Source: Gammaproteobacteria bacterium (GTDB lineage Bacteria > Pseudomonadota > Gammaproteobacteria > UBA4575). From it: 64,000 nt of DNA. Every line of letters starts with the position of its first letter. The first letter of the stretch is position 1. The notes under the pieces were generated by a model, which saw only the letters and a program-made list of their open reading frames with translations, ran no database searches and was not told the origin of the DNA. The translations under genes were made by a program, and so were the position numbers. Positions 13,044-22,837 of the stretch are shown one piece after another. The stretch is taken from NCBI GenBank assembly GCA_026706595.1, contig JAPOYL010000013.1:75705-139704 (forward strand). Direction: 5' to 3'.

Positions 13044-13207
13044 CTCTCAACTCATAACCGGATGAGTGCACCTGTACAATTGAACGTGTCGGGTGGACTG
13101 ATGTGTGTGCTGTCCTGGAAATCAGAACCGGGTGGCCGGCATCTTCGGCCCGCGACTACTGCAACCCGATTCCGGATGCCGAAGGAAAATCCTGTTTCGC
13201 AATCAAA

Positions 13208-14446
13208 CTATTCCTTCGTGTCCATGGTGATGATGTGGCCCAGTTTCTCCTGCTTGCTCTTCAGGTACTTCTTGCGAAACTGGTTATTGGTATACGACAG
13301 TATGGGAATGCGCCGGACCAGCTTGATGCCGAAATTCTCAATCCAGCTGCACTTGTTCGGGTTGTTGGTCAGCAATTGCACGCGCTCTATGTGCAGTGCA
13401 TGCAATATGTGGGCAGCCACTGAGTGGTCTCTTTCATCGGCATCAAACCCCAGGGCGCGGTTCGCCTGCACCGTATCAAAGCCGCACTCCTGCAGTGAAT
13501 ACGCCTTCAGCTTGTTGACCAGACCGATGCCCCGGCCTTCTTCCCTCATGTAGAGCACCACTCCGCAGTCATGCTCCTGGATTACTTTCATGGCAGTCTG
13601 GATCTGGTCTCCGCAATCACACCGTGCGGAACCGAACACATCGCCGGTCAGACACTCTGAGTGGATCCTCACCAGCACATCGTCATCCTTGTCCCATGAA
13701 CCCTTGACCAGTGCCAAGTGCTCCTTGCCGGTCAGGTTGTCGCGAAAGGCGATCAGTTCGAACTCGCCCCAGCGTGTCGGAAGCTGAACGGTGACCACCC
13801 GCTCTACCCGGGACTCAAAACGAAGCTTGTAGCGGATCAAATCCTTGATCGCGATGATTTTCAAGGAAAACCGCTCGGCGATCTCCATCAGGTCAGGCAG
13901 CCTAGCCATCGAACCATCTTCCTTCAAAACCTCGCACAGCACGCCGGCCTTGCGCATGCCAGCCAGGCTCATCAGGTCAACCGCTGCTTCGGTATGCCCT
14001 TCTCTCTGGAACACTCCACCGCTGACTGCTCTCAGCGGGAAAATATGACCCGGGCGGGTAAAGTCTTCCTGGGTGATGTTCGAGTCTGCAAGGGCCTTCA
14101 CGGTCTTGGCACGATCGGCTGTCGAGATTCCCGTGGTGGTCCCGTGTTTGAAATCCACAGACACGGTAAAGGAGGTCGTGTGCAGTGAATCATTTTCGCC
14201 CTGGGGCACCATCAGCTTCAGGCCGATTTCTTCGGCACGCTCCTCCGTGATCGCAGTACAGATCAGCCCGCGTCCCTCGGTAGCCATGAAGTTGATCATG
14301 TCCGGGGTACATTTGTCGGCAGCCCCAACAAAATCACCCTCGTTCTCACGGTTGTCATCATCCACCACGATGATGACATTCCCGCGCCTCAACTCGACCA
14401 GTGCTTCCGGTATGGTGCTGAAATTGATTGGCTCGCTAGTCGACAT
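13208..14446 (-). CDS. ribBA: Bifunctional 3,4-dihydroxy-2-butanone-4-phosphate synthase / GTP cyclohydrolase II
   Basis: 412 aa. DHBP synthase half (DDDNRENEGDFV) plus cyclohydrolase II zinc motif (HSECLTGDVFGSARCDCG). Confidence 0.95.
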   Translation of the reverse strand: MSTSEPINFSTIPEALVELRRGNVIIVVDDDNRENEGDFVGAADKCTPDMINFMATEGRGLICTAITEERAEEIGLKLMVPQGENDSLHTTSFTVSVDFKHGTTTGISTADRAKTVKALADSNITQEDFTRPGHIFPLRAVSGGVFQREGHTEAAVDLMSLAGMRKAGVLCEVLKEDGSMARLPDLMEIAERFSLKIIAIKDLIRYKLRFESRVERVVTVQLPTRWGEFELIAFRDNLTGKEHLALVKGSWDKDDDVLVRIHSECLTGDVFGSARCDCGDQIQTAMKVIQEHDCGVVLYMREEGRGIGLVNKLKAYSLQECGFDTVQANRALGFDADERDHSVAAHILHALHIERVQLLTNNPNKCSWIENFGIKLVRRIPILSYTNNQFRKKYLKSKQEKLGHIITMDTKE

Positions 14447-15215
14447 GGTCGGTGTCCCTCATGATTTTCCCCCAGACTGTGCATCCAGCATCCGCATCTT
14501 AATCAAATTCCTCTTTACCCGGCCATATCCACTATTCTCCACGGCCAAGCCCCGTGTACGCGCAAACTCACCTGTACATCCGCGGGCGATTATAGCCGTA
14601 TACTTTGTAATATTGTATCAAAAAGGCCGCAGCCCTACGTGCAGACCTGCATCCTGGTGATGCGAGTAGCAGGCTCGAAACTCTCCGGGATTTTCATTGT
14701 AATGATCCTCAATATCTAGTCTGTACCAGACAGGGCCTGTCGACCTGTGCCAGCCCAGCCCCCGGGCTACTTGTGTTTCATCCCACTGCCTGTAATGAAG
14801 TGCTTGGGGTTGGACACCCTGTCAAGATCTACAAACCAGGAAACCCCTTGACCCGGCCCGTCAGGGAAACAGCACAGTGTGTTTCAGGGCCGTACTCGCT
14901 GCCTGACTTCTCGCTATGGCCAAGCCGGTAAAGAGACTTTGTATGTCTGCTGTAAATGATCCCCAGTGACACTGATCACGACTCTCTTTCGTATAAATTC
15001 ATAAAATTTTCACGATATTTTCTGAATACATCACACCAAGATCATAAAGGCCTTGCTACGATGCGCACGGTCACATCAGCATCAACTTTCGCTATGACTT
15101 CAAGGCAGAACTCTAACGCGATCTTCCCATTTTCCCAATCGCGGATCAGCCTAAGCGGCCCTCTCTGGCCACTTACATCTAGTGTGACGGGGTGATTCGT
15201 AATCAGGTGCCGGTT

Positions 15216-16236
15216 ATGGAGAAGAAAAGAGTCATCGTCATTGGTGGAGGAGCAGCAGGACTGAGCGCCACGTGGACACTCAAGAAGCGTGGCCTCGACC
15301 CCATCCTGTTCGAGGCCAGCGACCGCGTGGGTGGACGCCTGGGCGGTGACCGGGTGGACGGTTTCTGTGTGGACGAAGGCGCGGACTTCTTCTGCTCCTC
15401 GTACGACGCGGCCTTTCGCATGTGCGAGGAACTGGGATTGCGTCTGGTTCGCTCGAAGATGAAGCTGGGCTGGTACAGAAACGGCCGGTGGGCTCTGTCG
15501 ACGCCATTCGAGTCTGTGAGTGCCCTCGTCCGAGACCTGCCAGCGCTCAAGACGCTAGGGTTTCTCTCGCCCCGGGACGTCGGGCCGATGCTGAAACTGG
15601 TCAGCGGGATCAGCCGGCAGTCGAAATACCTGAATTTCTCCAGCGAGTGCAGGATCGCCGAGATCGACAAAGGGGAGACATTCGGCGATTATCTGAAGCG
15701 GATCGGCGTGTCCGACTACCTGAAGACCACTCTGGCCGGATTTCTTGAGATGACCATGGGCAATATCGACGACGCCAGCGAAGCGTACATGCGAACCTAT
15801 CTGTTGGAAATGATCTTGAAGGCGGACCAGATCTATGTGCCGGAAAAGGGTGCAGGTGCCCTGTCCCACGCGCTGGCCGGTGCATGCGGAGATGCCATTC
15901 GTGTTTCACACCCTGTCCACCGCGTGGATATCCAGGACGGTGCTGTGGTGAGAGTAGTCACAAACGATGGTCTGATAGAGGCAGACGCTGTTATCTGTGC
16001 CCTTCCCGCCACAAGGGTGGCGGACATCATCCCCGGCCTGCCACCCGGGGTCCGCCGCACACTCGGCAGGATCATCTACTCGCACGGGTGCCGGGTGGTA
16101 ATTGGCCTGGATCATGCGCCCCTTCCCCCTGGTTGGAATGGCGCGTTGTACCCCGAAGACGAGACACCGGTGCTGCTGGACCGGTCCATCAATCTTCCAG
16201 CCATCGCACCACAAGGCAAGAGCACACTCGACCTGC
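15216..16236 (+). pseudogene. FAD-dependent oxidoreductase (amine oxidase / protoporphyrinogen oxidase-like), N-terminal fragment cut by the IS
   Basis: Dinucleotide-binding fold VIVIGGGAAGLSATWTL..FEASDRVGGRL. The frame runs into the IS inverted repeat and stops at 16239-16241. It continues in frame at 18822 once the IS and one TSD copy are removed. Confidence 0.85.
16229..16236. repeat. Target-site duplication, left copy (CGACCTGC)
   Basis: The identical 8-mer lies directly outside both inverted repeats (second copy at 18814-18821). Confidence 0.9.
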
Positions 16237-16257
16237 GGTAGTGTCTCAGTTTGAAAT
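16237..16257. repeat. Terminal inverted repeat (transposase-proximal end)
   Basis: GGTAGTGTCTCAGTTTGAAAT. The exact reverse complement lies at 18793-18813. The transposase stop codon (16246-16248) lies inside it. Confidence 0.92.
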
Positions 16258-17124
16258 GCGTTTCTTGTAAGGCCCGCGCTTTTTGGGCGGCGGGTTCTTC
16301 GCATCGATCAGGTCTATGATGAAGTCTACATCGTGTAGCGTGTCTGTCAAACCGGCTTGCATGGCCGGGGTGACTTTCAGGCTCTTGTGGATGCGGCAGA
16401 AGTTGTAGTGTACGAAGTACAGGGACAACTGGTGGATGTGGTTCTCGATTCTCTTGCTGAACGCATTGGTCAGGCGGGTGAACCGTCTCATGCTCATACG
16501 CATGGTCAGGTTGTGGCGCTCTACATGGCTGGTGGATACGTGCTCCCTGTCGGGATTGCCCGTGATCTTGCGCTTGCGTGCGCCGTTGCACTTCGGCGGG
16601 CTGTAACGATGCTCCTGTTCAGGTGAAGGGCCGTACAGCTTGACCAGTTGCGCGTAGTCCACGTCCGCGCCAAAGGCATCTTCCATCGCTTCCAGATAGG
16701 CCCTGTGGCCGTCCGTGGTGAGCTGCACCCGGTTAGCTAGCCTGGACTTCACATCGTCCAGGAACTCAAGGGCATAGCCACTGTCACGCCCGCCAACCAG
16801 GTAAGAGACCATCAGCTTGGATTCGGGGTCCAGTGCCGTCCAGGTCCATACGTCCCCGGCATCTTTAGGGGCCGCTACAGCCAGGGGCACGTTCTTCTGC
16901 TTGGCGTAGCAGAACGACCATATTTCATCGCACTGGATGCGGCGGGCGTTCACGTCCCGAACCGCCTTGTCGTGGAACTCTGCACAGGCTTCGCCTGCAT
17001 CCACAAGCAGCTTGGTTACGGTGTTGATGGATACGCCGACCGTGCGGCTGATAGAGCGCATGGATGAACCCTCGACCAGAAGGTTCAGAACCATTTTTCG
17101 CTTGTCTCTGGAAAGTCTGTTCAT
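16246..17124 (-). CDS. IS1-family transposase (single ORF, no insA/insB frameshift)
   Basis: HTH ([16 protein letters not shown]). DDE-region motifs [43 protein letters not shown] at 17124 ([10 protein letters not shown]). The track ORF starts at a TTG at 17160. Confidence 0.9.
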
Positions 17125-17174
17125 GGTTCTAATACTAACCTGAACTAGACTAAATAGCAAGCATTTAGTTCAGT

Positions 17175-18480
17175 TTATGCTACCATCTTACGCTTGATCC
17201 AGCCCTTATCTGTCAGACATGCAAGCAAGTATTCCTGCGACCGCGCACCTTTCACTGAGTTGCAGTGGCCGCATAGCAACTGGAGATTACTGATATGATC
17301 CGTGCCGCCCTTCGCCTTTGGAATGATGTGGTCCACGTGGAAGTGCCGCAGCTCGAAGTGTGTTTCACACCCGTTGCAGTACCCGCCCTGTTCGCCATAC
17401 AGATAGCGCTTATTGCGGGCATCGTTATAACGAATCACTTTGCCCAAGTCCGTGCGCTCCGGCACGTCCGTGCGGTGTACGCCTTCATAAAATGCGCCTA
17501 TCTCGTTCTCCATGCGGTCCTGCACCAGATCGGCTGCCTTGGGTGAGATGTCGATCCCTACCCACTCCCTGTGCTCGATTTCGGCTGCTATGCAGGCTGT
17601 AGCGCAGCCGCAGAACGGATCTAAAACCACGTCTCCCTCATGACTGGATGCCTTGATGATGCGCTGTAGCAACGCCAAAGGCTTCTGGGTGGGATAGCCC
17701 GTGATCTCCGAGCGGTTGCCCGGAAACCAGCCCTGGGACGTGTACAGGTGACTGATATCCATCCAGGTATCGTGCAGTGGCACTCCCGGACTTTCGTCCA
17801 GGTACTGGCGTTTGATCTTGCCGTTCTTCTTTCGGGTTTGATATTTGCGCCCATGCTCGTCCTCGTGACGGAACCATTTGAGATACTTTTCCGAGTAGGG
17901 CAGGTATTGGATGTTGTAGGTGTGCTTCTTGTAGCTGGCTGCATAGGCCAGCAGGGTTTCATGCGCCTTGCCCGGCTTGTACTTGGCGATTGCGCCGGAT
18001 CGGGAACCGATGAACCAGGCCACCTCAGCTACGAAGTTCTTATACCCGAAAATACAGTCCAGCAAGGCTTTCAGATAGTGGCCTGCGGTCGGATCGCAGT
18101 GCAGCCAGATTGTGCCCGTAGGCTTGAGAATCCGGCGCATTTCCATGAGCCTGACCGCCATGGAGATCAGGTAACTCATCATCCCATCGCTATGGACTTC
18201 GCGGGTGCCTTGCAGCAGGGCATACAGGCCGGGGTGCTCGTGCTTGATCTCCCCGTGCCAGGCCAGGTTCACATCATCCAGCGTCCACGTATCCTTGAAC
18301 CACGCGCCCGCAGCCTTGCTGCCGATGGGTGCCGAATATGTCTTGTTCTTACTGTAAGGGGGGTCCAGGTAGATCAGGTCCACTGAGGCACTGTTCATGC
18401 CCCGCATGATGTCTAGGTTATCGCCCGTCCAGATGGTCTGATTGGCCCAATTTGTCGGGGGGGGGGGGGGTAGAGGTCAT
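17175..18480 (-). CDS. DNA N4/N6-methyltransferase (beta-class) fused to a C-terminal HNH endonuclease; the 5' end is out of frame at a C14 tract
   Basis: DPPY motif (LIYLDPPYSK), then the AdoMet motif VLDPFCGCATACIAAE, then HNH (HVDHIIPKAKGGTDHISNLQLLCGHCNSVKG). The uninterrupted ORF is 17175-18407. The same frame upstream reads TNWANQTIWTGDNLDI. The ATG at 18480 is 1 nt out of frame. Confidence 0.85.
18457..18470. repeat. Homopolymeric tract G14 (C14 on the coding strand)
   Basis: Counted directly: 14 consecutive G. It lies between the ATG at 18480 and the conserved methyltransferase N-terminus. Confidence 0.95.
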
Positions 18481-18490
18481 ATCTGGTAGC

Positions 18491-18712
18491 TTACTGCGAC
18501 CAGCGGGCCTCTGCTGCCTTTTTGGCAATCTGTTTGCGCCGGGCCTTGCTCAGGGACTTGGCGCGGGCCTTGCCGCCCGCTACGCCACTGGCATGTCTGC
18601 CAGGGCACTTTAGTTTGTTTTCAGAAAACTCACCTGTCGCAATTTTGGCAACCGTTGTCGCGCATCCGACTACATCTGCTGGCCGCTTTTCACCGTTAGG
18701 GCCTTTAGGCAT
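18491..18712 (-). CDS. Small basic protein (73 aa), first gene of the IS cargo
   Basis: MPKGPNGEKRPADVVGCATTVAKIATGE.., with a Lys/Arg-rich C-terminus ending KARRKQIAKKAAEARWSQ. AGGAG lies 9 nt upstream of the ATG. The stop is 10 nt before the ATG at 18480. Confidence 0.55.
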   Translation of the reverse strand: MPKGPNGEKRPADVVGCATTVAKIATGEFSENKLKCPGRHASGVAGGKARAKSLSKARRKQIAKKAAEARWSQ

Positions 18713-18792
18713 GGGGGTTTCGCTCCTGTGTGTGTCAACCCTTATACTACACTAAACTGTACAACTGGTTTGGAAATTCGATACAAGGTGAG

Positions 18793-18813
18793 ATTTCAAA
18801 CTGAGACACTACC
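18793..18813. repeat. Terminal inverted repeat (cargo-proximal end)
   Basis: ATTTCAAACTGAGACACTACC, the exact reverse complement of 16237-16257. Confidence 0.92.
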
Positions 18814-18821
18814 CGACCTGC
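18814..18821. repeat. Target-site duplication, right copy (CGACCTGC)
   Basis: Identical to 16229-16236. Confidence 0.9.
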
Positions 18822-19171
18822 TGGTCGGTCGCGATCGTGCGAAGGAACTGTTTCCGTTGGACGATGAGGAGATCAAGTGCCGGATGCTTGCCGATGCACG
18901 ACGCAACCCCCCTCCCGGCTCCGCACTCCCCGGCGACGACGAGGGGCTGTTCACGCGTGTTTACCGCTGGCGGGATGCCGTATGCATGATGCCGCCCGGT
19001 ATGTTCAAGGAGGTCGCACAGATGCGCCATCAACTCAGCGGGACAATCAAAAACCTCTTTCTGGCAGGCGATTACATGCGCGTGCCCAGCGTGAATGGCG
19101 CCTTGGCCAGCGGAGTGATTGCGGCCGACGAGGCGGCGAACATGCTGACAGTCCCTGAGTTCACAGACTAG
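18814..19171 (+). pseudogene. FAD-dependent oxidoreductase, C-terminal fragment
   Basis: Reads ..DLLVGRDRAKELFPL..NLFLAGDYMRVPSVNGALASGVIAADEAA, the C-terminal FAD-binding signature of the amine oxidase/PPOX fold. In frame with 15216-16236 after IS removal. Confidence 0.85.
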
Positions 19172-19286
19172 GATCTGTTGAACTGCTCCGTCAGTTTCAT
19201 CCTTCACTGGCGGTGACGATCACAGGGACTGCTGACACTATTAGTGTGGTGCGAGTCGTGGACCACCTGCAGATCGTCGATATCTG

Positions 19287-19327: not shown

Positions 19328-19404
19328 TGGTAGCGGGGGCAGGATTTGAACCTGCGACCTTCGGGTTATGAGCCCGACGAGCTGCCAGACTGCTCCACCC
19401 CGCA
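19328..19404 (-). tRNA. Initiator tRNA-fMet (anticodon CAT)
   Basis: 77 nt ending CCA. Near-identical to E. coli tRNA-fMet by eye. Three G-C pairs close the anticodon stem (GGG-CUCAUAA-CCC). Positions 1:72 are unpaired (U-U). Confidence 0.9.
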
Positions 19405-19572: not shown

Positions 19573-19603
19573 CCCCGTGCGCCGGCAGGCGTCGCAGCTC
19601 GGA

Positions 19604-22340
19604 TCAGAACCGCAGGCGGAGGTCGAGCCTCAGTTCGTGCTCGGGCGCGGCCGCGTCACTCTCGACGCGCGCGCCGGCGAACTCGACGCCTAGCGGCATG
19701 GGCCACGCCTCAAACCGGGTGCCGAGACGGAGCCGTCGGCTCCCCTCACCGGCCAGCCTGATTTCTGCGAACGGTGTCAGAAGCCCGTGCGGCGCCATGC
19801 CCAGGCCGTAGCCGAGGTGCGCATCCAGCGAGGCGGTCTCGCCGTGCGAGGTCCCGCCGGGCTGAGGCAACTCGTCCCGCCACAGCGCCTTCGCGCCGCC
19901 CGTGCCCACGCCCCAGCGCGGGCTCAGCGCCAGCGACAGACCCCTCCCGTGCGCCCCGGGGTCCAGCCGCATCGTGAGGCTGAGGCCGCGCTCCTCCGCG
20001 CCGTCCTCCGAGTGCGCCACGAGCCATCGCCCGCGTGCCTCCACCTGAAGACGGCGCGTCGTGTAGCGCAACCCGCCCGCCACCTCGAGGCCAGTCCCCA
20101 CAAGTCCATCACCCCCGTCGCGCCGCGCCGCCGTCTCGACGAACGGCGTGAGCGCCGCGTCCTCGTCCAGTTCAATGCGCCTGGAAGCCTCCAGTCCCAG
20201 GCGCGTCCGCCAGCTGTCGGCGGTCAGCCCGTCCAGGTAGTCCGGGCCGCCATCGGTCTCCAGCCGCGCGAGGCTCGCCTCCGCGCGCAGCGACAGGTCG
20301 CGACCTGCGCGCGCGTGAAGCGCGTGGCGCAGCCCCACCGATCCCATCCGCATCGACAGGTCGCTCGTCTCGCGCGCGCCGCCGATCAGCCGGTGCTCTG
20401 CCTTGCCGCGCCCGGCACCGAGCATGCCGTGCAGCTCCAGGCCGTCGGACACCGTCCAGCGCCCGTAGGGGTAGAGCGCGGTCAGCGTCGTCTCCAGCCG
20501 GCCCTGTCCCGAGCCCCCGGAGTCGCCGCCGTCAAAGCTGTAATCCGCCTCGCCGGTACCGTGGCTCAGCGCGAGGCCCGCCACCCACGCACCGGCCCGC
20601 GCATCCACCCCCAGCCAGCCCGTGCGCAGATCGCCCTCGTAGCGCATGCCCGGCTCCGGACGGCCCGAGAAGCTCCCCAGGTCGCCCCGGCCCCACACCG
20701 ACCAGCGCGTCGCCGAAGGCACCTCCGCACCTTCAGCCACGCCCAGCGTCAGCGAGAAGGCGCTCGCGGCCAGCCACTCTGCCGCGCCGGCGCCCCGGTT
20801 CTGCGCGACGGGCGCGCAGCCCTCGCGACCGTTGTCGAAGAAGCCGGTCTGTCCGAAGGCGCCGCCCACGCTGCGATGGCCCTGCTCACACGGCCCTTCG
20901 TGCGCAAGGCCGGGGGGGCCGCCCCCCCCCCGCACCGAGCGCCAGCGTCTTGCCGGCCAGCGTCAGCTGGCCCGACGGAACCGAGGCCAAAAACCGCATC
21001 CCGATGTTGTCGAGCGCGCTCGATAGTGCCCCGCGGCCCACCGCCGCAAGCGTGCGCTTCACCGTCTGCCTCAACAGCGCCGCGCTCTCCACCGTCACCA
21101 TCACTGCGTCCGAGGCGCTCAGCCCCCCGGGGTCGGTCACCGTGAGCCGGAACGCCAGCTCGCCCAGCGACTCCGGCGCCGCGAAGGAGGGCGTCGCCGT
21201 GTCCGCCCCCGCGAGCGTCACCGACCCACCCGAGACCTGTGTCCAGGCATAGGCCAGCTCGTCGCCGTCGGGGTCCGAACTCCCCGAGCCGTCCAGCGTC
21301 ACGACCGAGTCCGCAAACACCGTGAGGTCGGCTCCTGCGTCGGCCACCGGCCTCCCCCCTAGGCTGTCGTTGGCCACCGTCTGTGTGAAGCTCGCCACCG
21401 CGTTGCCGGCGAAGTCGCGCAGGCGCACGCCGAGCGCGGCCGGGCGCGTGTAGTGCACCTCGACCGTCTCGCCGCGGGCGACCGGCGCCGCGAGCGTCAG
21501 CGTGACCCTGCGCTGGGTGCGGGAAGTGTCGAGGTCGACCGCTGACGGGTGCACTCCAGCCCCGTCGCCCACCACCACCTCGAACGCCTCGGGCGGGGGC
21601 ACCGAGCCGGGATGGAGCCTCTTGCTGAAGGGGATGGTCAGCGTCGCACCGCTTACCGTCGGCGTGCCCGACACCCGCGGCGGCGGCGACGACTTCGCGT
21701 AGCCTTTGATGGTGAACATTAAAGATACATCATCATTTGTAGGATCATAATCCCACGAACTACCAGCAATATTATAAACCCGAGCTTCAATACCTTGAGA
21801 GATGGACCAACCCGACAAACCTGTTTCGTTAGTTGATCGTGTCAATTCGAAGTTTGAACCACTTTCAGAGCCGCTGGGTGTGTGGTCAATAACTAACCAA
21901 TAGGATGTTTCGGGCTTCAGATCGATACCTGACCCTGAAGCTTTGTAATTGTTATCAGCATTCGCGGTCAGTGAAGCTGGGTTCGTCAACGTGCCCACGA
22001 GAGTGCCAGGATAGTGACGTTGGCTACCATGTCGTAACCTACCAGGAGTGGAATCTTCTACGCTACTGCGGATTTCCACGGTGTGCGGTGCCGGGAGTAC
22101 CTCACGGATCTTAAGGTCTACACTGGTCAGCTTATAGCCCTGAGCATGGCTTCCTGTAACGAACTGCGTTGCAGTGTCTTGAAAGACGCTTGTTCTAGAT
22201 CCGATAGCCTGATTAATGTTGCTCACCAGGCTGACATTCGTTTGCGCCAAAGCCTGGGAAACGCCTGACAGCAAGGCCGGACCGAACAGGCAGGCGGTTG
22301 CGCAGCAGAGGCGCACAGCCCGAAAAGAGAAGGGCCTCAT
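19604..22340 (-). pseudogene. Autotransporter (signal peptide, N-terminal domain, SwmB-like Ig domain, PKD-like domain, C-terminal beta-barrel), split by a frameshift at a G10 tract
   Basis: ORFs 20886-22517 and 19604-20935 overlap at the homopolymer. Signal peptide MRPFSFRAVRLCCATACLFGPALLSGVSQALA from the ATG at 22340. The barrel ends ..LRLDLRLRF. One G fewer gives a single ORF of about 911 aa. Confidence 0.8.
20912..20931. repeat. Adjacent homopolymers G7 (20912-20918) and C10 (20922-20931)
   Basis: Counted directly. On the coding strand this reads G10-C-GG-C7, inside a Gly/Pro stretch (GAGGG / GGGGPPG). Confidence 0.95.
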
Positions 22341-22837
22341 AAGCCTGGCCGCCAGCCGGCGAAGCGGGAAATGAGGAGGAGAGAAGGCCGGGGCTTCCCG
22401 GCTGGACGATGCCCAAATCTGTCGGGCTGGCGCTCTAATTATGAGATTAGGCAGATTCCGTACTGTCAATGGGCACATCAATGAATGTTTCTCCTTGAAA
22501 TCTTGCAGCCCACTCATGACCCAGGCCGTCGACGATCAAAAGCTTTCAGATAGAACGCTGTCAGTTTAACGGCTTATTTATGAATATTGCATGATAGTAT
22601 GAAAAAGTTCATGATTTTCATGTGAATTTCGCAGGGGTTGTACACGATAATGCATCCGTTCGGTGCAGGGGTGGATCTTTCAGCCCGGACATGGCCTCAT
22701 CCGGAACCGGTGTGTTCAATCGCTGGCAAGTCTCAAAAGTCTCTGAACCAGTACAGGAGATTGCCGGGCTTTCGGCACAATCCTCGAATGGGCCGGAAGG
22801 GGGCGACCGATACTCACAAATCGGGAATATCGGTCTC

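Follow-up and report, generated by a model that had tools for sequence, protein, structure and literature searches.

Whether an insertion sequence (IS) with ends like those of IS1 can move genes other than its own as part of one unit, and which of the enclosed genes would then count as passengers, is the question raised by a segment of contig JAPOYL010000013.1 from a Gammaproteobacteria bacterium (assembly GCA_026706595.1). The window, by which is meant the whole stretch of 64,000 nucleotides analysed here (positions 75,705 to 139,704 of the contig), is part of metagenome scaffold ENA ERZ23496111 (ROBB21-1_SAMN13943208 scaffold_124, 151,680 bp), and its housekeeping proteins fall, at 90% identity or more, into clusters with proteins named from metagenome-assembled genomes of Gammaproteobacteria/Pseudomonadota. 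Within it, an oxidoreductase gene is interrupted by an element that encodes a transposase, a fusion of a methyltransferase (MTase) with an HNH domain (MTase-HNH) and a basic protein of 73 amino acids. A preliminary description of the letters had read this element as an IS1-related DDE transposon moving a gene unrelated to transposition as one unit, a claim now supported by IS1-type ends, an 8-bp duplication, colinearity of the transposase with InsAB' of IS1, and the relatives of the element. We conclude with high confidence that the element, 2,577 bp between and including its ends, moved as one unit and is an IS1-related transposon, and we consider it likely that it is an autonomous transporter IS (tIS) of the IS1 family with two core genes and an exchangeable cargo slot.

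Ends, target duplication and host gene

The element is bounded by GGTAGTGTCTCAGTTTGAAAT and its exact reverse complement, which form perfect 21-bp terminal inverted repeats (IRs); the identity between the two arms stops at base 21. With up to 3 mismatches allowed, this 21-mer matches the 64-kb window at these two sites only, and no match was expected in 100 shuffles. Directly abutting both IRs is the 8-bp target duplication CGACCTGC, and the unit between the IRs is filled by three open reading frames (ORFs), all on the minus strand. In-silico excision of the 2,577 bp and one copy of the duplication yields an uninterrupted ORF of 464 amino acids of the FAD/amine-oxidase type, without a stop codon; the predicted empty-site sequence of this gene contains ...CACACTCGACCTGCTGGTCGG..., and its halves carry Pfam NAD_binding_8/Amino_oxidase calls. 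The perfect IRs, the duplication and the exact in-frame restoration of the host gene, all of which the preliminary description had reported, were recovered at the same positions, as was its single-ORF IS1-like DDE transposase with a stop codon inside the IR. Its three co-oriented ORFs stand as to number and strand, with the correction that the MTase-HNH ORF as called is truncated N-terminally by a frameshift. The coordinates of all features are collected in Table 1.

A Logan assembly made separately from run SRR10996932 (locus L002) contains the same junction between the transposase side of the element and the host gene; exact-protein look-ups and the one Logan contig gave no independent assembly copy of the junction on the side of the small ORF. 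No Rfam family was matched inside the element. The element is a genuine tIS that is probably active, and a recent insertion is a reasonable reading of its features.

Four large contigs (L095-L098, 1.7-2.1 Mb), whose RibBA is at least 90% identical to that of the window, share with it ribBA, a luciferase-like gene, rimP, nusA and infB. Beyond ribBA in the opposite direction, these contigs encode a cupin and a P-type ATPase, where the window has the oxidoreductase gene, tRNA-Met and an autotransporter gene (about 13200-19200), so the insertion target sits in a variable region of this lineage.

Table 1. Features of the element and its insertion site, with positions in the window
Feature	Position	Strand	Basis or remark
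Interrupted host gene, FAD-dependent amine-oxidase/phytoene-desaturase-type oxidoreductase	15192..19171 (halves 15192-16236, 18814-19171)	+	
Target duplication, copy 1, CGACCTGC	16229..16236		Identical to 18814-18821
IR at the transposase end (IRR by the ISfinder convention)	16237..16257		Includes the final codons (ISN) and stop codon of the transposase gene
Single-ORF IS1-family DDE transposase, 292 aa, ATG at 17124	16246..17124	-	TGA at 16246-16248, inside the IR
Predicted transposase promoter	17132..17160	-	Read from the sequence and an alignment of relatives
AAACTGA motif, candidate operator	17170..17176	-	Alignment of regions 5' of the transposase gene
Cargo MTase-HNH gene, conserved ATG at 18480	17175..18480	-	Domain matches and N-termini of homologues
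MTase-HNH ORF as assembled, 410 aa	17175..18407	-	Frame broken at the homopolymer
Homopolymer, G14 on the + strand, C14 on the coding strand	18457..18470	-	Candidate slipped-strand ON/OFF switch
Family core gene, 73-aa basic protein	18491..18712	-	Homologue in 75 of 75 complete relatives
IR at the small-ORF end (IRL by convention)	18793..18813		Exact reverse complement of the other IR
Target duplication, copy 2, CGACCTGC	18814..18821		Identical to copy 1

The transposase and its relation to IS1

The transposase contains a helix-turn-helix (HTH) at about residues 12-46 and the catalytic residues D66 (CDEIW), D138 (TTDGH) and E202 (VERHNL), and it matches Pfam PF03400 (DDE_Tnp_IS1) with 25.1 bits, the cutoff being 24.1. 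As a reference, InsAB' was taken from IS1A of E. coli K-12 and fused across the A6C frameshift site. Residues 12-229 of the transposase are colinear by BLASTP with residues 56-218 of InsAB' (22% identity, E 4e-6), and the HTH (transposase 12-46 with InsA 56-90), the first aspartate (DEIW/DEQW), the second aspartate (TDGH/TDGW) and the glutamate motif ERHNL are all aligned. Comparison by hhalign of a profile of 30 family members with InsAB' gave 94% probability and an E of 1e-7 over 164 columns. The D..D..E(RHNL) core is homologous to that of InsB/InsAB'. The ends agree with those of IS1 also: IRs of about 20-25 bp starting with GGnnnTG are characteristic of the family (GGTAGTGTCTCAGTTTGAAAT here, GGTGATGCTGCC... 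and GGTAATGACTCC... in IS1A), and IS1 generates target duplications of 8-9 bp, the duplication here being 8 bp. Two classical features are missing. There is no N-terminal zinc finger before the HTH, as the transposase starts at the HTH without a CxxC...CxxC region, and there is no insA/insB pair with a programmed -1 frameshift, the gene being one uninterrupted ORF; that frameshift marks the classical group only, and the IS1 family accepts single-ORF groups. The transposase is a distant relative of IS1 and, if the IS1 family is taken broadly, one of its members.

At least 8000 homologues of the transposase are present in the protein database, the top ones with 75-88% identity; NCBI or JGI gives the name 'IS1 family transposase' to several homologues. 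Since the source databases use this name for close homologues, members of the clade are probably registered already. The ISMhu11 group, suggested for comparison in the preliminary description, is listed as archaeal-centred with two frameshifted ORFs, which would not fit this single-ORF clade.

Relatives of the element

A scan with a transposase profile, with one genome per species, found at least 574 relatives, of which the best 80 loci were taken. Two plasmids (of Hoeflea and Acidiphilium) and the three loci of the closest proteins (L091-L093) were added, and 75 complete elements could be delimited by IRs with 0-5 mismatches. The relatives belong to the Alpha- and Gammaproteobacteria, Acidobacteriota, Chloroflexota (Dehalococcoidia), Nitrospirota (Nitrospirales), Binatia, Bacteroidota, Ignavibacteriota and Rhodothermales. 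The complete elements span 1,817-5,396 bp (median 2,819), and the 8-bp duplication around the whole unit is perfect in 66 of them and matches at seven of eight positions in 3 more. There are, then, footprints of unit transposition at 69 independent sites of relatives and at one in the window, where genes not concerned with transposition lie inside the IRs and a single duplication surrounds the whole. No transposase-only IS (about 1 kb) was found among the 75 complete elements, and a search allowing up to 5 mismatches gave no IR-like copy separating the cargo from the transposase, in the window and the relatives alike. About 20 elements hold a further 0.3-1.3 kb between the transposase stop codon and the IR, of which the RES/Xre pair beside the transposase gene in the Acidiphilium plasmid may be an example.

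In two loci (L091:1016-1065 and L026:2111-6888), two elements of the family stand side by side with exactly 8 bp, the length of the duplication, between their ends. The spacer CGGAAACT of L091 doubles as the right-hand duplication of the second element, and the flanking 8-mers of L026 read GGAGAGCT / AGCTCTCC / GGAGAGCT, the middle one being the reverse complement. These arrangements suggest insertion right beside the end of a resident element.

A predicted sigma-70-type promoter with the consensus TGCTTGAC-17 nt-TAtAnT precedes every transposase gene, and in 57 of 76 elements it ends 6-7 nt short of the start codon. In the window it consists of the -35 hexamer TTGCTA (17160..17155), a 17-nt spacer and the -10 hexamer TAGTAT (17137..17132), 7 nt before the ATG; a generic promoter scan, with its stricter hexamer rule, had missed it. 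With a promoter ending so close to the ATG, the transposase mRNA is predicted to be leaderless or nearly so, which would be in keeping with the lack of a Shine-Dalgarno sequence and possibly with the broad host range. The TTG at 17160 was rejected as a start codon of the transposase, as it belongs to the -35 hexamer of the conserved promoter. Just 5' of the -35 hexamer is a semi-conserved (A/T)AAACTGA, which copies the inner IR sequence (ATTTCAAACTGA); AAACTGA is a weak candidate for an operator that the transposase may bind.

In many relatives (for example L020, L024, L027, L044, L050 and L064), the promoter about 45-15 nt before the transposase start often reads ATGCTTGAC(G/A)CTAAGCAT. This sequence forms a 6-bp inverted repeat, ATGCTT/AAGCAT, over the -35 hexamer, with the look of an operator. 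The copy in the window (ATGCTTGCTATTTAG) is without the second half of the repeat.

A small protein common to all complete elements

The 73-aa protein, with the pattern MPKGPNGEKRPADV...GGKARA..L....R..IAKKAAEARW, was detected by tblastn in about 60 loci, and a hidden Markov model built for it found a homologue in all 75 complete elements, whatever the cargo. Its gene is on the strand of the transposase gene in 74 of these, normally no more than a few hundred bases from the distal IR. Because of this universal presence, the small protein is to be counted as a core gene of the family and not as cargo; that it belongs to the core, and that the MTase-HNH is exchangeable cargo, is held with high confidence. 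The cargo of about 1.6 kb in the preliminary description, which had included the small protein, is reduced accordingly to about 1.3 kb, the MTase-HNH gene alone.

There are at least 2303 homologues of the small protein, all unnamed. It matches no Pfam, NCBIfam or PADLOC family and contains no zinc-finger pattern, and a sequence profile search of the PDB gave chance-level matches only. AlphaFold2, with an alignment of 52 sequences, predicts three helices (residues 12-25, 37-53 and 56-71) with a mean pLDDT of 76; Foldseek found 0 matches to this model in the PDB. The C-terminal motif GGxARAxxLxxxxRxxIAxxAAxARW also opens P63C-domain cargo proteins of the family and phrog_2384, and the motif common to the P63C cargo and the C-terminal helices of the small protein may be a shared nucleic-acid-binding module. 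In four loci (L046, L048, L057 and L092), P63C cargo proteins of about 360-425 aa, encoded on the strand opposite to the transposase gene, begin with GGxARAxxLxPExRxxIAxxAAxARW. In the window, the small-protein gene has the Shine-Dalgarno sequence AGGAG and ends 10 nt before the ATG of the MTase-HNH gene, a gap so short that the two genes are probably co-transcribed here. Our best guess, offered tentatively, is that the small protein assists or regulates transposition as a DNA-binding protein.

Contents of the cargo slot

Even transposases 85-86% identical to that of the window are found with different cargo: an MTase-HNH in L091, a P63C protein in L092 and an SDH-type protease in L093. By tblastn, the MTase-HNH was found in one locus of the scan only (L005), and together with L091 it is present in 2 of about 80 related loci; the question raised in the preliminary description, whether the cargo is always linked to this transposase, is thereby answered in the negative. 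A census of 149 cargo ORFs of at least 108 aa, naively called and including some spurious ones, gave Pfam matches to HTH_3 (19), Peptidase_M78 (13) and P63C (6), three each to MTase with HNH (including the gene of the window), SDH_protease, SocA_Panacea, Fic and nSTAND1/AAA_16, two each to DUF4760, PemK/MazF and DUF433, and one each to RhuM and a dCTP-deaminase-like family, besides a few nested ISs. PADLOC recognised RmrA, the antitoxin-type HTH-M78 protein of RosmerTA, in 9-10 elements (E down to 3e-191), PD-Lambda-2_B in 10, these probably overlapping the RmrA matches as the families are related, and SoFic and PDC-S24 in 3 each; HigB-like toxins are encoded beside some of the HTH-M78 cargo genes. 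Judged by these matches, the slot is dominated by toxin-antitoxin (TA) and anti-phage modules.

The MTase-HNH and its poly-C tract

The cargo gene of the window encodes N6_N4_Mtase and HNH domains (Pfam, 2.7e-38 and 3.3e-13). The MTase is of the beta class, with DPPY preceding the AdoMet motif DPFCGCAT and its catalytic motifs intact, and the C-terminal HNH domain is intact also (CxxC...DH...N...CxxC), so that MTase and nuclease motifs are found together in a single polypeptide, as would be needed for restriction-modification (RM) by one protein. The closest solved structures are the adenine MTases CcrM, M.RsrI, M.MboIIA and DpnA, and PADLOC matches the protein with Type II MTase profiles. The fusion is shared by at least 8000 homologues. 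It may be a compact, self-contained RM or addiction-type module; the addiction or defence reading is suggested by the TA and anti-phage modules in the same slot of sister elements, and that the cargo is a switchable module of either kind is held with moderate confidence.

Close homologues of the MTase-HNH (73-80% identity) are found beside a tyrosine integrase, in phage-like arrays and after an IS1595-family transposase. In one locus (L089:2691-4972), an MTase-HNH 73% identical to that of the window directly follows an IS1595-type transposase (Zn_ribbon_IS1595 and DDE_Tnp_IS1595) with overlapping stop and start codons, and in another (L088:4675-6296), it follows a fragment of an IS1595-family transposase inside a phage-like gene array. 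From these arrangements, the MTase-HNH also travels with a sister transposase family, and the gene itself is highly mobile. A metagenome scan with the MTase-HNH gave 8 loci, none of them within an IS1-like element.

Full-length homologues of the MTase-HNH all begin with M-x(2-8)-NWANQTIWTGDNLDIMRG. In the window, this conserved N-terminal segment is encoded 5' of the called ORF in another frame, and a run of 14 cytosines on the coding strand begins 10 nt after the conserved ATG. A tract of 13 or 16 cytosines would give MTSTPPPP(P)TNWANQTIWTGDNLDIMRG..., a protein of 434 or 435 aa from 18480, and one of 12, 14 or 15 a stop after about 20 codons; the tract is, then, a repeat within an ORF whose length shifts the frame, as in contingency genes. 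In L091 (transposase 86% identical), ATGGTAGCCAG-C9 stands at the same position, in frame, in a gene of 461 aa, and in L005 (transposase 69% and MTase 49% identical), ATGACG-C9 is out of frame and would be in frame as C8 or C11. All three IS-borne copies of the MTase-HNH thus have the tract at the same codon position (C14, C9 and C9) in differing frames. No comparable poly-proline start was found in eleven sampled homologues with an intact N-terminus (P0242-P0262), and a tract of at least 8 is absent from 11 of 12 homologous loci outside such elements. Because a hypermutable tract is kept at one codon position across this divergence and in different frames, a contingency switch suggests itself, and we hold it slightly better than an even chance that the MTase-HNH is phase-variable through its poly-C tract.

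In the twelfth of these, a JGI metagenome locus with no IS1-like IR within 4 kb (L102:3978-3985), a C8 lies about 16 nt 5' of the conserved NWANQ segment, and this locus may hold a fourth tract-bearing copy in another context.

A homopolymer scan with thresholds of at least 8 for C/G and at least 9 for A/T found two runs in the 64 kb, the second being a C10 at 20922-20931. It lies in a block of about 1.9 kb (19600-21500) with 72-75% G+C, the flanks being near 55%, beside tRNA-Met (19328-19404), where it splits a passenger-like ORF with SWM/Big_9/PKD domains (20886-22478) from an autotransporter beta-domain ORF on the minus strand (19604-20869/20935). With 9 or 12 bases the two would form one ORF of 957 aa; the run may mark another contingency locus or else reflect a systematic miscount of homopolymers.

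Alternative explanations

Two alternatives concern the unit itself. The window comes from a metagenome scaffold, and its junction on the side of the small ORF has no independent assembly, so the element might have been mis-joined into the oxidoreductase gene; this is extremely improbable, for the duplication is perfect, the host ORF is restored exactly in frame, the Logan assembly repeats the junction on the transposase side, and the same signature is present in 66 independent relatives. Scarcely less improbable is a plain IS1-like IS lying beside captured host or phage genes, with the outer IR contributed by a nested or composite element, so that the 2.6 kb would not be a transposition unit. 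The size of classical IS1 (just 0.77 kb) speaks for such an arrangement, as do the tandem elements 8 bp apart in L091 and L026, whose ends could be confused. It is opposed by the lack of any internal IR-like sequence, by a duplication that encloses the whole unit here and in the 66 relatives, by a host ORF that is recovered solely when all 2,577 bp are removed, and by a shortest relative of 1.8 kb. A nested IS with the outer IR of another element, the scenario by which the preliminary description would have been refuted, is contradicted by the missing internal IR copy and was rejected. Several observations nevertheless count against the tIS reading as a whole, and the remainder of them are given with the genes that they concern. 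The transposase scores 66 bits with the NCBIfam IS1 model (NF033558), under its cutoff of 100, and is only 22-29% identical to InsAB'; the absence of transposase-only members rests on the best 80 of at least 574 loci, and plain ISs may exist further out. The preliminary description had proposed counting copies and searching for empty sites, and neither a second copy nor an empty site was found in the genomes looked at: exact-protein look-ups returned the same scaffold and one Logan contig only, leaving a single copy of the element on record, and genomes with RibBA at least 90% identical are without the side that carries the oxidoreductase, tRNA and autotransporter genes. With one copy on record and no empty site, transposition activity can only be inferred.

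The other alternatives concern the genes within the unit. Homology of the small protein to a DNA-binding family could not be detected, and the protein might serve the cargo as a regulator or antitoxin-like partner, or be an unrelated conserved passenger, rather than form part of the transposition machinery. The recurrence of its C-terminal motif at the N-terminus of P63C cargo proteins and phrog_2384 would suit a partner of the cargo, as would the position of its gene 10 nt 5' of the cargo gene with probable co-transcription, but a cargo-specific partner would change along with the cargo, and this gene is found in all 75 elements with any cargo on either strand, its position near the IR and its orientation being kept in 74; such a role is unlikely. 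The MTase-HNH, for its part, might have no function in defence or addiction and be either an orphan epigenetic regulator of the phasevarion type with an accessory HNH domain or a selfish homing or nicking nuclease-methylase that hitch-hikes. Its close homologues in phage-like arrays, by a tyrosine integrase and after an IS1595-family transposase are in keeping with this, PHROGs and PADLOC match generic MTase and HNH families only, there is no separate restriction endonuclease or specificity gene, and the HNH domain could be a homing or nicking nuclease rather than one that restricts unmethylated DNA. The slot of sister elements, however, holds mostly recognised TA and defence modules (with the reservation that many cargo ORFs are unannotated and that the naive calls include spurious ones), and modification plus cleavage would logically require no more than an MTase joined to an intact HNH, so we regard the orphan or selfish alternative as doubtful. 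Somewhat more weight, still short of probability, is given to a miscount in assembly or sequencing, by which the gene would be constitutively intact (C13) with no switch. Most platforms make errors in G/C homopolymers of 10 or more. At this tract two assemblers disagree or stop, the Logan contig ending within it with CCG and C16, which does not match the upstream flank and is possibly a poly-G read artefact; the C10 run of the window likewise breaks an ORF and is mended by -1, and C10 and C14 fit a systematic +1 assembler miscount as well as they fit two contingency genes in the OFF state. Nor is the tract length secure in L005, which comes from the chromosome of a metagenome-assembled genome (MAG) of unstated sequencing platform. 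Against a miscount, the tract is found at the same codon in three elements whose MTases are 49-56% identical, with differing lengths and frames, 11 of 12 homologues outside such elements are without it, its retention in a variable N-terminal linker argues for selection whatever its true length, and the other affected gene encodes an autotransporter, a classic phase-variable class.

Proposed mode of action and significance

For the element as a transporter IS, the following course can be proposed. The transposase would bind both IRs and cleave at their GG termini, and the whole unit would be joined into a target cut with an 8-bp stagger, leaving the 8-bp duplication and the split FAD-oxidoreductase gene, both of which are observed. 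The MTase-HNH would stabilise the element and defend the host, and slipped-strand mispairing at the poly-C just after its start codon would turn it ON or OFF, the C14 as assembled being OFF or truncated. The small protein may replace the missing InsA-type module as a DNA-binding accessory or regulator of transposition; this is the step held with the lowest confidence.

As a single element it holds little surprise, but with it a tidy family comes into view that is largely unannotated. In the literature that was accessible, no account was found of the universal small core gene or of near-identical IRs across phyla, none of the defence/TA bias of the slot or of a conserved poly-C tract in IS-borne MTase-HNH genes, and none of the apparent lack of cargo-less members among the closest 75. 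A more far-reaching interpretation, which we put forward as speculative, would be a cross-phylum family derived from IS1 with two core genes, namely a universal 73-aa protein of new fold or function and a transposase without a zinc finger that is expressed from a leaderless mRNA. Such a family would shuttle single compact defence or addiction modules (RosmerTA, PD-lambda-2-like, SoFic, Panacea, MazF, STAND NTPases), and here a one-polypeptide MTase-HNH RM module turned ON and OFF by the conserved poly-C tract, which would make it a transposon-borne 'mobile phasevarion'.

As regards annotation, the name 'IS1 family transposase' would in thousands of MAG entries stand not for a plain IS but for a unit of 2-5 kb with a fixed partner gene that is labelled 'hypothetical' everywhere, and the 21-bp IR together with the small ORF provides a simple way to delimit members of the family. 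The elements form a natural series, with the same ends and core and a different single cargo, in which the spread of small defence and TA modules between phyla can conveniently be studied, and the slot, many of whose ORFs are unannotated, could be searched for new defence candidates. Both the universal small protein, as a possible new accessory factor of transposition, and the methylase-nuclease, as a possible phase-variable gene borne by a transposon, are open to test. If the tract does switch, phase-variable methylation would no longer be confined to Type I/III systems and host-adapted pathogens but would include, in environmental bacteria, a transposon-borne Type II-like MTase-nuclease, and switching would be one way to carry a selfish RM-like module at low cost.

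Comparison with known systems

With IS1 (IS1A of E. coli K-12), the element shares a DDE transposase colinear with InsAB' 52-225, ends that start with GGTnnTG (GGTAGTG in the element, GGTGATG/GGTAATG in IS1) and a duplication of 8 bp, that of IS1 being 8-9 bp. It differs in that its transposase is without the N-terminal zinc finger, is encoded by a single ORF without the insA/insB split or the -1 frameshift, and carries about 36 inserted residues between the second aspartate and the glutamate as well as a C-terminal extension of about 60 aa; its transposase promoter is internal and of the leaderless type, not within the IR; and it has a second core gene and a cargo slot, which bring it to 2.6 kb as compared with 0.77 kb.

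The IS1595 family is a sister of IS1 that likewise makes 8-bp duplications and carries passenger genes, which Siguier and colleagues are said to have described in 2009. The transposase of the element, in contrast, matches neither PF12762 nor a Zn-ribbon and carries the IS1-type ERHNL, and the IR sequence is not the same.

Tn7-like elements with defence cargo were reportedly described by Benler and colleagues in 2021. TA pairs ride in Tn3-family elements, and a tIS is defined as an IS with passenger genes inside its ends (PMC9330008). The element resembles a tIS, as it does in concept the passenger-carrying and single-ORF IS1-family entries of ISfinder, in that an IS-type transposase and IRs enclose a gene unrelated to transposition, and it resembles the Tn3 family (TA) and Tn7-like elements (defence) in the use of addiction and defence modules as passengers, its sisters carrying RosmerTA/PD-lambda-2-like, SoFic, Panacea and MazF modules. 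Unlike both of these, its family is far smaller (2-5 kb), usually carries one module per element, and has an IS1-type transposase without a resolvase or targeting proteins.

Homopolymer slippage is an established switch of phase-variable RM methyltransferases (PMC12707154), and the MTase of the window resembles those of phasevarions in having a simple-sequence tract in its 5' coding region whose length sets the frame. The known phasevarions belong to host-adapted pathogens and are governed by Type III mod or Type I hsd genes, whereas the candidate gene described here encodes a Type II-like beta-class MTase-HNH and is carried by a transposon in an environmental, Gammaproteobacteria-like MAG.

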